Of a stretch of DNA of 64,000 nucleotides, positions 25,501 through 31,500 are shown piece by piece; the first letter of the stretch is position 1, and each line of letters begins with the position of its first letter. The translations under genes and the position numbers were made by a program. Below the pieces are notes generated by a model that worked only from the letters and a program-made list of their open reading frames with translations, was not told the origin of the DNA and searched no databases. Location of the stretch: assembly GCA_964016885.1 (NCBI GenBank), contig OZ024762.1, positions 16,740,001-16,804,000 on the forward strand, in the 5' to 3' direction. The DNA is from Eledone cirrhosa. Lineage: Eukaryota.

Positions 25501-28500
25501 AGCCTTCTCAGTCCGCGGTGTAAGGTAGCTTTATATTCTTTATATGTCTCTTTAATACCAGTTAAACTCGTAGGACACTCTCCCAGAAGCTTTTCATGAA
25601 GAGCATGTTTTTTCTTTAATAGTTGGCTGACAACCAGATTATTATCATCAAATCAGTCTTTAGGTTTTCTCCCCTCTCAATTCATTCTAGGAAAATTACT
25701 TCCCTTCCAAATAACTTTTAATACAACTGACACCATATATATATATATATATATATATATATATATACATATATATATACATATATATATACATATATAT
25801 ATACATATATATACATACATATACATATATATATATATATACATATACATATACATATATACATATACACATATATATATACATATACACATATATATAT
25901 ACATATACACATATATATATACATATACACATATATATACATATATATATACATATATATACATACATATACATATATATATATACATATACACATATAT
26001 ATATATACATATATATATATATACATATACATATATATATATATACATATACATATATATATACATACATATACATATACATACATATACATATATATAT
26101 ACATATACATACATATACATATATATATATATACACATATATATATACATATACACATATATATATACATATACACATATATATATATACATTTACACAT
26201 ATATATATACATATACACATATATATATATACATTTACACATATATATATACATATACACATATATATATACATATACACATATATATATATACATATAC
26301 ACATATATATATATACATATACACATATATATATATACATATATATATACATATACACATATATATATATACATATATATATACATATATACATAAACAT
26401 ACATATATATATACATATATATAAACATATATATATACACATATATATATATATACACATATAAATATATATATATATACATATATATACACACACACAT
26501 ATATATATATATACACACATATATATATATATATATACACATATATATACACATATATATATATACATATATATACACACATATATATATATATACATAT
26601 ATATACACATATATATATATACATATATATACACATATATATATATACATATATATACACATATATATATATACATATATATACACATATATATATATAC
26701 ATATATATACACATATATATATATACATATATATACACATATATATATATACATATATATACACATATATATATATACATATATATACACATATATATAT
26801 ATACATATATATACACATATATATATATACATATATATACACATATATATATATATATATACACACATATATATATATACATATATATACACACATATAT
26901 ATATATATATATACACACATATATATATATATATACACACATATATATATATATATATATATACACACATATATATATATATATACATATATATATATAC
27001 ATATATATATACATATATACATATACATATATATACACATATATATATATATATACATATATATATATACATATACATATATATACACACATATATATAT
27101 ATATATATATATACATATATATATATACATATATATACATATATATACACATATATATATATATACATATATATATATACATATACATATATATATACAC
27201 ATATATATATATATATATATATATATACATATATATATATATACATATATATACACATATATATATATACATATATATATATATATATATATACATATAT
27301 ATATATACATATATATATATATACATATATATACACACATATATATATATATATATACATATATATATACACATATATATATATATATATATACATACAT
27401 ATATATATACATATACATACATATATATATACATATACATACATATATATATATACATATACATACATATATATACATATATATATATACATATACATAC
27501 ATATATACATATATATATACACATATATATATATATACATACATATATATATATACATACATATAAAAATACACATATATATATATATACATATATATAC
27601 ACACATATATATACACACATATATATACACACATATATATACACACATATATATATATACACACATATATATACACACATATATATACACACATATATAT
27701 ACACATATATATATACACATATATATATATACACACATACATATATATACATATATATATATACACATACATATCTATACATACATATATACATATATAT
27801 ATATATACACATATATATACACATATATATATACACATATATATACATATATATACACATATATATATATATACATATATATATACACAAATATATATAT
27901 ATACATATATATACAGACATATATATATACACATATATACACATATATACACATATATATACACATATATATACACATATATACACATATATACACATAT
28001 ATATACATATATATACATATATACACACACATATATATATACATATATACACACATACATATATACATATATACACACACACATATATATATACATATAT
28101 ACACACATATATATATACACACATATATATACACACATATATATATACATATATACACATATATTTACACACATATATATATATATACATATATACACAT
28201 ATATATACCCACACACACATATTTACACATACATACATATAAAAACAAACACACACACACACACACACACATATAAAAACAAACACACACACACACACAC
28301 ACACATATAAAAACAAACAAACACACACACACACATATATATATATATATATATATATAAACACACACACATATATATATATAAATATATGAAGCTGACA
28401 TCATTTAAGAGATAATCTGCAATCCGTGGTACACCTGACAACTAACGAGCTGTAAGCCTACCTGATCTCCGAGCATCTGCTATTGTTTCACCTGACGCCT

Positions 28501-31500
28501 TACTCATAACTTTGACCACATAGAGTGGACAGTTGGCCTGGTTGGCGATCGTGATTGCGCGTTGTACCGCTTCCTTTTCAACCTAAAACATGAATGTCCC
28601 CATAGGTCAAAGCAACTTATACTGCACGCAGTACTATACATATATACACACACATACACACGTACACAGTGTGCCCATTGTAAAAGAAACAATAGTAAGC
28701 TTGTAGTAGTTTTAAATATATTTGTAGTTATTTTACAAACGAAAGACATTTTTTTTCATGTAAAATTTATTCAAATCGAAAAATATTTGATTGAAAAATT
28801 TAGATATGATTCTAAAGAAGGTTGTATTTACCTTTAAAATATATTATATATGAAATTTATTTAAATAAAAAAATATCTATTTGAAAACACCAGAGCTAGT
28901 TCTAAACCAGTGTTTTTATTTTTAAAATATAAACGTTTTTATATATGAAATTTAGTCAAATCAAAAAATATTTGATTGAAAAATCTAGATATGATTCTAT
29001 TTACCTTAAAAATATATTATATATGAAATTTATTTAAATAAAAAAATATTTATTTGAAAACACGAGAGCTAGTTCTAAACTGGATTGTTTTTACTTAAAA
29101 AATATAAACATTTTTATATGTGAAATTTTATGAAATCAAAAAAATATTTGGTTGAAAAACCTCAAGTGAGTTCTAAATAAGTTTGTAGTTACTTTTAAAA
29201 GCAACCCTTTTTTTTTTTATAAATGTGAAATCTATTCAAATTAATAAATATTTGGTTGAAAAACCTTGAGTGAGTTCTAAATAAGTTTGTAGTTACTTTT
29301 AAAAAGCAACCTTTTTTTTTTTTTCATAAATGTGAAATCTATTCAAATCAATAAATATTTGGATGAAAAACCTAGAGCTAATTCTAAATAGGCTTGTAGT
29401 TACTTTTAAAAAATAAAAAAAAATTGTTTTTGCATGTGAAATTTATTCAAAATGACAAATAAGTGATAAAAAAATCTTATTTTTAGTTACATTATCAGAA
29501 ATTAACAAACAAACAATTATATTTTTGAATTAGAATTTTCAAGTTTATAAAAATTAATTGGTTCTATTTTAGGCACAAGGCCAGTAATTTAAGGAGAGGA
29601 GAGGGGGGGGGGGTCGATTAAATCGACGCCAGTGCATGACTGGTACCTTATTTTATGAATCACCATAAAGGGCCGTAACTCTATGCTGCCAATCCAAAAT
29701 ATAATTAAAAAAAATATTTCAGTAATATTTAAATAAGTTACTGAGAAGATTAAAATAAGTTTATTATTTTAAATCCAACAACTACAGTATATCTCCAAAA
29801 AATATACACACACTTCAACAGCATTCTAATCAAAGTATGCATACATTTTTTTGGGACACCCTGTATTATTGCTACAACTACTACTACTACTACTGCATCT
29901 ACTATTGTGGCTCTTACAATATACACAATTGCTGAAATGGTTAAAGTTATAAAAACAACATATATAAGGTTTAATATACTGGGTTAGTTTTTATATAAAA
30001 TAAAGAATTATGATGAAATATATCATCATCATCATCATCATCATTAGCCCCATCACCGTAAATCTTGAAACTAGAAAATTACTTGCACCAAATCAAATAT
30101 TTTTTTTTAAGGTTTCGAAAAAGATCCTTAATTTCATAAATTACTTGGGTCGGGTTCTTTTTTTAAAAATAAGGATTTAATGATTTAAAAATTTAAATTA
30201 TATGAAAAGGAATTTTGATAAAGTCTCTGTTGTCCCTCTGTATGGCTGTGTGTGTGTATGTGTGTGTATGTGTGTGTAAAGAATGTATGTGTATGTGTGT
30301 GTATATGTATGGCTGTGTATGTGTGTGTGTGTATATGTATGTTTGCATATGCAGTGTGTGTATATGTATGTTTGCATATGCAGTGTGTGTATATGTATGT
30401 TTGCATATGCAATTTGGAACAACTACATTACAAATATTTTTTCTCTTATGTTTAAAACTCTTTTTTCATGTTTAAAAATCTATTTTTCATGTTTAAAACC
30501 GCTTATTGCCTGTTTGAAAACCCCTTTTGCCTGTTTAAAAACCTTTTTTGCATGTTTAAAAACCTTTCTTACATGTTTAAAAACCCCTTTTGCCTGTTTA
30601 AAAACCTTTTTTGCCTGTTTAAAAAACCCTTTTGCCTGTTTAAAAACTCCTTTTGCATGTTTAAAAACCCTTTTTGCCAGTTTAAAAACGCTTTTTGCCT
30701 GTTTAAAAACCCCTTTTGCATGTTTAAAAATCCCTTTTGCCTGTTTAAAAACCCTTTATTTCATGCTTAAAAAAATTTGAATCTAGTGCAAGACATTTTC
30801 TAGCGGTCAAGTTGTCCGAAGAGGTATAAAACAGACCTTTCTTGCGAGCTAATGCAACACTATCAGCAGCAGTTTTGCTCATTACATGAACAATATAGAG
30901 AGGGCAGTTTGCCTGGTCAGCAATCATAATGGCTCGGTCAGTAGCTTCAACTTCCACCTTGTAGCCAAATTTGAAATAAAAATAAAACAAAAGGGAGCAT
31001 GCAGTGCAATAAAGCCAAAGAAAATATACCGAAGAAAATAAAGAAGGAATAAAAATGATAATTAAATAAAATAGAAATTAAAGTAATTACAAAATATAGC
31101 ACACAACATTGACAGTGATAATGAAATAATATATAGTGCAGGGCAGAACATGGAAATATATTGTTAACCCTTTAGCATTTACATTGTATTTTCACAGTAA
31201 AGGCTTTACCTCACATAATATTTACATTACTCTATATATACTATTGTATTTTCATAGTAAAGGTTTTACCTCACATAATATTGAATCTATGAGATTTTGA
31301 TGTTATTTATTTTGAGAACAATACCTTAACATCAGTATGAGAGGCCTGTTATGGTTGGTTGGAACAGAGAGAGGTGAGAAAATTCTAGCCGGATATGGCT
31401 GGTTTAAATGCTAAAGGGTTAAACCAGCCATGTCTGGCCAGAATTCTTTAACCTCTTTCTGTTCAAACTGGCTGAAACTTGCCATTCATACTGATGTTAA

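Follow-up and report, generated by a model that had tools for sequence, protein, structure and literature searches.

A choice between His- and Lys-bearing exons in one Eledone cirrhosa gene, predicted to separate dihydropyrimidinase from a CRMP-like protein

The exon pair and its reading frame

The window, a stretch of 64,000 nucleotides of the Eledone cirrhosa genome (assembly GCA_964016885.1, contig OZ024762.1, positions 16,740,001 to 16,804,000), carries on its minus strand the exons of a gene of the dihydropyrimidinase (DHP)/CRMP family (Table 1). Between exons F and H lie two paralogous exons of 121 nt, G1 and G2, each running from phase 0 to phase 1 and bounded by an AG acceptor and a GT donor; coordinates, phase and splice sites are as the first-pass annotation of this DNA had given them and are seen on the minus strand. 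The splice sites of G1 look weak (AAG acceptor, GTCTGT donor). The two exons are identical at 75 of 121 nt and at 24 of 40 residues, with a dN of 0.33 and a pS of 0.75, which is near saturation. This divergence at synonymous sites, together with the conservation of G2 among octopods (95% identity to O. bimaculoides), bears out the proposal that the paralogy is old; the sequence is that of an octopod-like animal, in line with the first-pass placement among cephalopods. A search of the genome with G1 matched only G1 and G2, no third copy of the exon was found in the window and 40 kb of flanks, and three genome searches returned a single locus, with no second DHP/CRMP family gene found in Eledone cirrhosa.

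A frame of 538 codons, from exon B to exon M, stays open with either G1 or G2 alone between F and H. Joining G1 to G2 turns the second codon of G2 into a stop, and skipping both creates one 2 codons into exon H; the frame is thus broken by including both or neither, as had been claimed, and transcripts of either kind would be expected to be removed by nonsense-mediated decay. Equal in length and phase and flanked by the identical exons F and H, G1 and G2 have the make-up of mutually exclusive homologous exons.

Table 1. Exons and a candidate regulatory element of the gene, in positions of the window
Feature	Position	Strand	Remarks
Exon B	55659..55753	-	First core coding exon
Exon C	51321..51394	-	
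Exon D	48919..49029	-	HxH metal ligands
Exon E1	45572..45736	-	
Exon E2	42105..42247	-	Carbamylated Lys and third His ligand
Exon F	37522..37590	-	Constitutive, upstream; 69 nt, phase 0 end; matches loose end of G2 contig
UGCAUG (Rbfox consensus)	30998..31003	-	46 nt upstream of G1 acceptor; candidate repressor element
Exon G1	30837..30957	-	His-bearing (enzyme) alternative exon; His codon 30886-30888
Exon G2	28462..28582	-	Lys-bearing (CRMP-like) alternative exon; Lys codon 28511-28513
Exon H	23182..23338	-	Constitutive, downstream; 157 nt; matches loose end of G2 contig
Exon I	20436..20577	-	Catalytic Asp
Exon J	19009..19092	-	
Exon K	17184..17363	-	
Exon L	16604..16690	-	
Exon M	7341..7527	-	Start of CRMP-type C-terminal tail, common to both isoforms
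Cassette exon in tail	567..608	-	42 nt; 14/14 residues identical to O. sinensis cassette

Transcripts and occurrence in other animals

Expression of both exons is indicated by the public run X3, a single sample taken as cDNA only because exon junctions are present, with cover mostly on exons. A 177-nt contig over G2 has loose ends that correspond to the last letters of exon F and the first letters of exon H, so that spliced use of G2, on which the first-pass annotation had staked its reading, is found in this run. An equally long contig over G1 has the same 26- and 27-letter overhangs, which would be its F and H ends. The contig depths (185.9 for G2, 86.5 for G1) cannot rank the isoforms and were not used. 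No G1–G2 joint occurs among the 15 of 16 joints of X3 contigs displayed, contigs being prone to drop rare forms. Together with the stops described above and the isoform pairs of relatives described below, the two contigs argue for the mutually exclusive use that had been proposed. As explanations of G2, a decaying duplicate and an error of assembly are ruled out by its splicing to F and H, its conservation in O. bimaculoides, its continuous or partial coverage by three genomic-type runs of one sample and the isoform pairs of relatives; no point was found in favour of such a reading. The expectation that G2 would be easy to miss in annotation did not hold: in an Octopus protein cluster of 19 members, 11 of the 15 listed contain it.

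The established precedent is Drosophila CRMP, in which, as the first-pass annotation had stated, DHP and CRMP isoforms arise from mutually exclusive exons; PMC8652244 describes exon 9a as non-neuronal and active and exon 9b as neuronal and inactive. The likeness is close, one gene holding two paralogous exons of which one keeps the catalytic His and the other replaces it (PMC8652244, PMC7954323), but the replacement is Gly in the fly and Lys in Eledone cirrhosa. The switch extends far beyond cephalopods. The same 40-residue swap is annotated in Octopus, a chiton, bivalves, Lingula and the hemichordate Ptychodera, where all eight same-length isoform pairs differ only there, by 12–17 residues of the one exon; exon borders in these species rest on annotated proteins. 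These annotated pairs constitute a previously unremarked swap. Mytilus and Mya models carry both exons in tandem with the His exon first, the same order as in Eledone cirrhosa. In four crustaceans, the swapped unit is longer, starting 16–20 residues into G and running through exon H, whereas Eledone cirrhosa swaps G alone. The suggested fly-type single-gene switch is upheld as regards paired His and non-His exons in one gene; the differing crustacean borders indicate that the pair is not simply the same one throughout. What is already known is the switch in Drosophila; new are its taxonomic breadth, the exon unit and the fact that five of the six ligands stay in place. The tandem exon duplication of PKM1/PKM2 (PMC7954323) is another example of mutually exclusive homologous exons in which functional residues change, although the Eledone cirrhosa swap would turn catalysis off rather than tune it.

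The active site and the function of the two isoforms

The His of G1 (column 24) maps to His248 of human DHP and His239 of the Pseudomonas aeruginosa enzyme (PaDHP). PMC7325199 names His248 as a zinc ligand that CRMPs have lost, and the H239A variant is reported as inactive in PMC4437985, in agreement with the first-pass assignment of this His as a metal ligand; the variant is H-to-A, the G2 change H-to-K. With G1, the binuclear site of His, His, carbamyl-Lys, His, His and Asp, contributed by exons D, E2, G1 and I, is complete, as in dihydropyrimidinases (EC 3.5.2.2; human DPYS 2VR2, fish 4H00, TIGR02033), from which the Eledone cirrhosa gene differs in its longer CRMP-type tail and its alternative inactive-type exon. 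The best PDB match of G1 is a fish DHP (44.8 against 39.8 bits), and the G1 form of O. sinensis matches human DHP best (E 7e-238). The G1 isoform would accordingly be a dihydropyrimidinase whose two-zinc site is completed by this His.

At the same column, G2 encodes a Lys that maps to K254 of CRMP2, its best PDB match (48.5 bits against 40.3 for human DHP, a gap that stems partly from the Lys itself). Vertebrate CRMP1–5 (DPYSL) proteins share the fold and the CRMP-type tail end, and Lys occupies the His248 site in CRMP1–4; variants at this site are Arg in amphioxus CRMP and Asn in a CRMP5-like protein. In vertebrates and amphioxus, however, CRMP and DPYS are separate genes, in contrast to the one gene of Eledone cirrhosa, and CRMP2 has lost four of the six ligands, the G2 isoform one. 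The further CRMP-type losses (His69, carbamyl-Lys, Asp) are absent from the G2 isoform, these residues all being retained in shared exons, and all 10 of the invertebrate Lys forms that were checked keep the other five ligands. The O. sinensis protein has Asn at the position of CRMP2 E353, the modelled salt-bridge partner of K254. Aligned to CRMP2, its CRMP-type tail end is conserved and its tail does not keep the T509/T514/S518/S522 stretch. In CRMP2, the 509–522 stretch holds the Cdk5/GSK3 phosphosite cluster.

These observations are best accommodated by a single-gene His/Lys exon choice between an enzyme and a likely dead CRMP-like protein, predicted to be the neural form (probability about 0.75). 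The change from His to Lys would remove a ligand of the beta zinc, and loss of catalysis in the G2 isoform would follow from enzyme chemistry. Some binding of zinc and of dihydropyrimidines is probably left to the Lys form, as shared exons encode the five remaining ligands and the pocket Asn; by analogy with the fly, G2 is predicted to mark the neural isoform. Rbfox, acting on the UGCAUG ahead of the weak G1 acceptor, may switch G1 off in neurons or muscle; the sense pre-mRNA (48,413 nt) has four such hexamers, and the one at G1 is a single occurrence noticed post hoc. Of 1,092 inverted-repeat pairs obtained in a search for docking/selector pairing, the 25 listed are microsatellite or element-like, with no candidate among them.

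Two other functions of the Lys isoform have been weighed. It is improbable, although worth keeping in view, that it is an inactive dihydropyrimidine-binding or regulatory subunit of many tissues, sensing the metabolite or damping activity in mixed tetramers, rather than a neural cytoskeletal scaffold. In favour of this is its retention of five of six ligands and of the pocket Asn; CRMP2 is reported to bind dihydrouracil with an apparent Kd of about 4 uM (bioRxiv 10.64898/2026.06.14.731825), and the missing phosphosite stretch points the same way. The Gly isoform of the fly, however, is reported to be exclusively neuronal (PMC8652244), and the conserved tail end and the Rbfox motif ahead of G1 also speak for a neural scaffold. 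The two roles are not exclusive of each other. More improbable still is a Lys isoform that has stayed catalytic, with an altered rate or substrate, by means of one zinc or of Lys as a weak ligand. All other catalytic residues are intact, which carries little weight as they are encoded in shared exons, while the inactivity of H239A (PMC4437985), the reported lack of pyrimidine catabolism by the non-His fly isoform (PMC8652244) and the loss of other ligands in whole-gene paralogs without this His all argue against residual activity.

Origin of the Lys exon and implications

It is well supported by sequence comparison that molluscan G1 and G2 exons are orthologous across classes and that the pair predates the chiton/bivalve/cephalopod split: in four-point tests without the His/Lys column, orthologous pairing is best in 19 of 21 comparisons, although the molluscan Lys exons no longer form one clade when rows are added and a mixture model is applied (3 changes). 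With moderate confidence, the pair probably dates back to the lophotrochozoan or protostome ancestor; in crustacean–lophotrochozoan tests, orthologous pairing does better than crossed pairing in 28 of 32 cases but is the best of the three in only 9. Outside G, CRMPs and chordate DHPs form a chordate clade (97/95) apart from the octopus gene, which is co-orthologous to both; a test for orthology of the G2 isoform to chordate CRMP genes came out negative. Ile34, Asp36 and Ser30 were rejected as signatures of Lys exons and CRMPs since they are present in Nematostella DHP and hence ancestral. A marginal rejection of a chordate CRMP+DHP clade in the G exon (p 0.0499) was likewise discarded, the His-only set giving p 0.41 and five control windows within that set p 0.17–0.61.

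The comparisons lean towards more than one origin of the switch, in the molluscan/lophotrochozoan or protostome line and again in hemichordates, with chordate CRMPs derived by whole-gene duplication and their Lys convergent. Within-species pairing is best in all eight four-point tests of Ptychodera and a starred clade (96/83) unites the His and Lys exons of ambulacrarians, which favours a separate origin of the hemichordate Lys exon from the molluscan one. Judged by sequence, Lys is also of independent origin in a horseshoe-crab paralog, where the exon is in all other respects of the His type (TachyH+TachyK 100/87), and Lys is also found, beside Gln relatives, in a dead paralog of gastropods. 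The deviating crustacean borders and the split of CRMP/DHP four-point tests (46/45/53) point in the same direction. The description of the Lys as vertebrate-like thus holds for its alignment with CRMP2 K254, but in view of these paralogs and the ambulacrarian clade the likeness may be convergent. Repeated origin would, however, require the same exon duplication and the same two-base change several times, and an appearance of independence could also be produced by gene conversion or by co-adaptation with shared exons. In the simpler tree, molluscan Lys exons group with CRMPs (70/76), and a single clade of all Lys exons and CRMPs is not rejected by the AU test (p-AU 0.36), which on 39 columns has almost no power: even G1 and G2 as sisters survive it (p 0.13). 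A deep origin is possible but doubtful. Under it, the His/Lys pair would have existed in the protostome–deuterostome ancestor, DPYS and CRMP would have begun as splice forms parted by a chordate-stem duplication, and gastropods and horseshoe crabs would have made dead paralogs separately.

Whatever its origin, the swap widens the range of the fly switch to include molluscs, a brachiopod and a deuterostome, and probably annelids. For these animals, what databases call "dihydropyrimidinase isoform X1" is frequently the form that is likely to be inactive. Near-identical protein pairs, one exon apart and with five of six ligands retained, set an enzyme against a likely CRMP-type pseudoenzyme, and such pairs make the origin of CRMP function directly testable. 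If the deep origin were true, the family would clearly exemplify how two splice isoforms can come to be divided between duplicate genes, here at the base of the chordates, and would imply that a dead dihydropyrimidinase has been repeatedly needed by animals; the one-residue change with which a family of neuronal pseudoenzymes began would still be present in octopus, mussel, Lingula and acorn worm.

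A single gene with two alternative exons

The DHP/CRMP gene, named for dihydropyrimidinase (DHP) and its non-catalytic vertebrate axon-guidance relatives (CRMPs), is located on the minus strand, and most of it lies inside the window, its 13 core exon positions running between 55753 and 7341. Three genome searches found a single locus in the 3.0-Gb genome (one returned 2 of its 11 matches outside the locus, at E 0.27-0.32; another had a stricter first step). By tblastn, the identity of the window exons to proteins of O. sinensis and Argonauta ranges over 76-98%, the lowest values including intron read-through, which marks the animal as octopod-like. 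Between constitutive exons F and H lie G1, which bears the enzyme-type His, and G2, which bears a CRMP-like Lys. They share 75 of 121 nt and 24 of 40 residues (pS 0.75, dN 0.33), in agreement with the first-pass description of paralogous exons with intact splice sites and high synonymous divergence. That both or neither would break the frame was also borne out: either exon alone keeps the 538-codon frame open, the two together give a stop at the second codon of G2, and skipping of both gives one 2 codons into exon H. Transcripts of the latter two kinds would decay.

Features of the DHP/CRMP gene and its introns
Feature	Position	Strand	Description
N-terminal match	58315-58365	-	weak similarity (E 0.003) to one of the O. 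sinensis alternative N-termini
Exon F	37522-37590	-	upstream constitutive exon
Inverted repeat	31220-31606		188 nt, 86% complementary, 11-nt spacer
Exon G1	30837-30957	-	121 nt, AG/GT ends
Exon G2	28462-28582	-	121 nt, AG/GT ends
Intron fragments	24654-24935, 22323-22511		reverse-transcriptase-like
Exon H	23182-23338	-	downstream constitutive exon
Cassette exon	567-608	-	42 nt, C-terminal tail

The introns flanking exon H carry fragments that we take, by their motifs, to derive from a LINE-type element. The cassette exon, identical to O. sinensis in 14 of 14 residues and present in some annotated Octopus isoforms but missing from others, is a second conserved splicing switch of the gene. A search of the window, 30 kb upstream and 10 kb downstream recovered neither the remaining first exons nor the last exon.

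The G2 stretch is present in four public sequencing runs of one study, none recorded as RNA. In X1, X2 and X4, which come from one sample, coverage continues across introns; in X3, 20 of 30 bins are covered and many intron bins have zero depth. A 177-nt X3 contig over G2 has loose ends of 26 and 27 letters that correspond to the last letters of exon F and the first of exon H, showing that G2 is used in spliced transcripts; a second 177-nt contig over G1 has a matching layout. Among the 15 of 16 joints of X3 listed, none connects G1 to G2. G2 is spliced to F and H, G1 probably likewise, and the frame logic of the pair is exclusive.

The active site and regulation

In alignments, exon position 24 falls on human DHP residue 248 (2VR2 chain position 270 minus a leader of 22 residues), P. 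aeruginosa DHP residue 239 and CRMP2 residue 254. According to a review, CRMPs lack the zinc ligands His69 and His248 (PMC7325199), and the H239A mutant of the P. aeruginosa enzyme is reported as inactive (PMC4437985). The earlier assignment of the His as a metal ligand holds, and the Lys matches K254 of CRMP2. The best PDB match of G2 is CRMP2 (48.5 bits, vs 40.3 for human DHP) and that of G1 is fish DHP (44.8, vs 39.8 for CRMP2), the position-24 residue itself contributing part of each gap. Of the six metal/catalytic residues (His, His, carbamyl-Lys, His, His, Asp), five of which lie in shared exons, CRMP2 lacks four and the G2 form one. The G2 form would lose catalysis and is predicted to be enzymatically dead. 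It has Asn at the position of CRMP2 E353, which a preprint models as the partner of K254 (bioRxiv 10.64898/2026.06.14.731825). The same preprint describes CRMP2 as retaining dihydrouracil binding, and by analogy the G2 form may therefore well bind substrate.

In Drosophila, according to a review (PMC8652244), mutually exclusive exons, as previously claimed, yield a non-neuronal, active form (9a) and a neuronal, inactive one (9b); by analogy, the G2 form would be neural. A UGCAUG lies 46 nt upstream of the G1 acceptor, which is weak; the 48 kb of sense pre-mRNA contain 4 copies of this hexamer, of which 2, this one included, fall within 200 nt of the 14 exons checked. Rbfox bound upstream is linked to repression (PMC11874969), and we regard this site as a candidate Rbfox element, as a lead only. 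The inverted repeat begins ~260 nt ahead of the G1 acceptor; it resembles a small transposon and, once transcribed into pre-mRNA, could fold into a long hairpin.

Distribution and history of the exon pair

In 22 clusters of annotated proteins (up to 15 members listed for each), both forms occur in nine: Octopus, a coleoid-like Logan cluster, Liolophura, Mytilus, Sinanodonta, scallops, Lingula, Ptychodera and Penaeus. The suggestion that G2 is easily missed in annotation failed: the Octopus cluster has Lys in 11 and His in 4 of its 15 listed members, so both isoforms are already annotated. Among the annotated members listed, the Lys form was not seen in 11 clusters, whose genomes may still encode a Lys exon (oysters, Haliotis, Patella/Lottia, Owenia, Capitella, Lineus, Priapulus, Diadema, Glandiceps, one Tachypleus gene, and amphioxus DHP-like genes with His or Pro at the site). 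The members listed for the other two, a second Tachypleus gene and amphioxus CRMP, have Lys or Arg only. Same-length isoform pairs differ at 12-17 positions, all within the 40 residues of G, in 8 of 8 pairs tested, and in the gene models of Mytilus and Mya the two exons stand in tandem with the His exon first, as in the window. Proteins of Paralvinella, Saccoglossus and five further ones (four of which group with annelids) combine Lys with an intact set of the other five ligands, as isoforms would. In four crustaceans the swapped unit differs from a G-only unit, reaching from 16-20 residues into G through the end of exon H.

Separate dead paralogs with further ligands gone occur in gastropods, a horseshoe crab and chordates. 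Gastropod paralogs P0058, P0061, P0065, P0069, P0070, P0072, P0074 and P0087 have Pro, Gln or Lys at the His site, most with additional ligand losses; they are apparently independent CRMP-like pseudoenzymes, and no Lys isoform was found among the gastropod protein records examined. Tachypleus paralogs P0081, P0136 and P0068 have His, Lys or Asn, and some amphioxus DHP-like genes (Branchiostoma lanceolatum P0200, P0203, P0204) have Pro. The His248-site ligand is thus one that is lost repeatedly.

All history tests excluded the His/Lys column. In four-point tests, whose comparisons are not independent, orthologous pairing was favoured in 19 of 21 comparisons among molluscs, in 4 of 7 between molluscs and Lingula and in 0 of 8 between lophotrochozoans and Ptychodera; between crustaceans and lophotrochozoans it exceeded crossed pairing in 28 of 32 but ranked first of the three pairings in 9 of the 32. 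A tree of 43 rows (from 59, after exclusion of 16 that were duplicates, some Lys rows, dead paralogs or distant rows) unites the molluscan Lys exons in a clade (81/69), with CRMPs plus Paralvinella as its sister group (70/76). Under a mixture model, a tree of 55 rows (12 of 67 excluded) splits this clade into three; it also contains a protostome group of 16 rows, mostly His (85/70), and a starred clade uniting ambulacrarian His and Lys (96/83). AU tests of alternative groupings rejected almost nothing. Lys arose inside a His-type exon in Tachypleus and can therefore converge. Orthology across molluscs is well supported and a protostome age is plausible; a deeper link, beyond protostomes, is less likely than not. 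With G left out, the CRMPs and DHPs of chordates fall into a single clade (SH-aLRT 95; 97/95 in a second tree; single outgroup), and the CRMP/DHP gene split is therefore placed in the chordate stem.

Relation to known switches

The G1/G2 switch is real, spliced, conserved and old. The proposal of the same enzyme/scaffold switch with a vertebrate-like Lys stands in part: one gene works as an enzyme/CRMP-like switch, as in Drosophila, with Lys at CRMP2 position 254, but the exon unit differs from that of crustaceans and only one of six ligands is lost. The G2 form is CRMP-like, but lies outside the chordate CRMP gene family. No paper on such a switch in molluscs, brachiopods or hemichordates was among the matches listed; the text or supplements of Morris et al. 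2012 may cover other taxa, and most subscription papers lie outside the search. The fly switch is already known from that work, as cited by later papers, and its replacement is reported as His-to-Gly (residue 192 in source numbering), whereas octopod G2 uses Lys. To this known switch, G1/G2 adds the Lys and an exon unit unlike the crustacean one.
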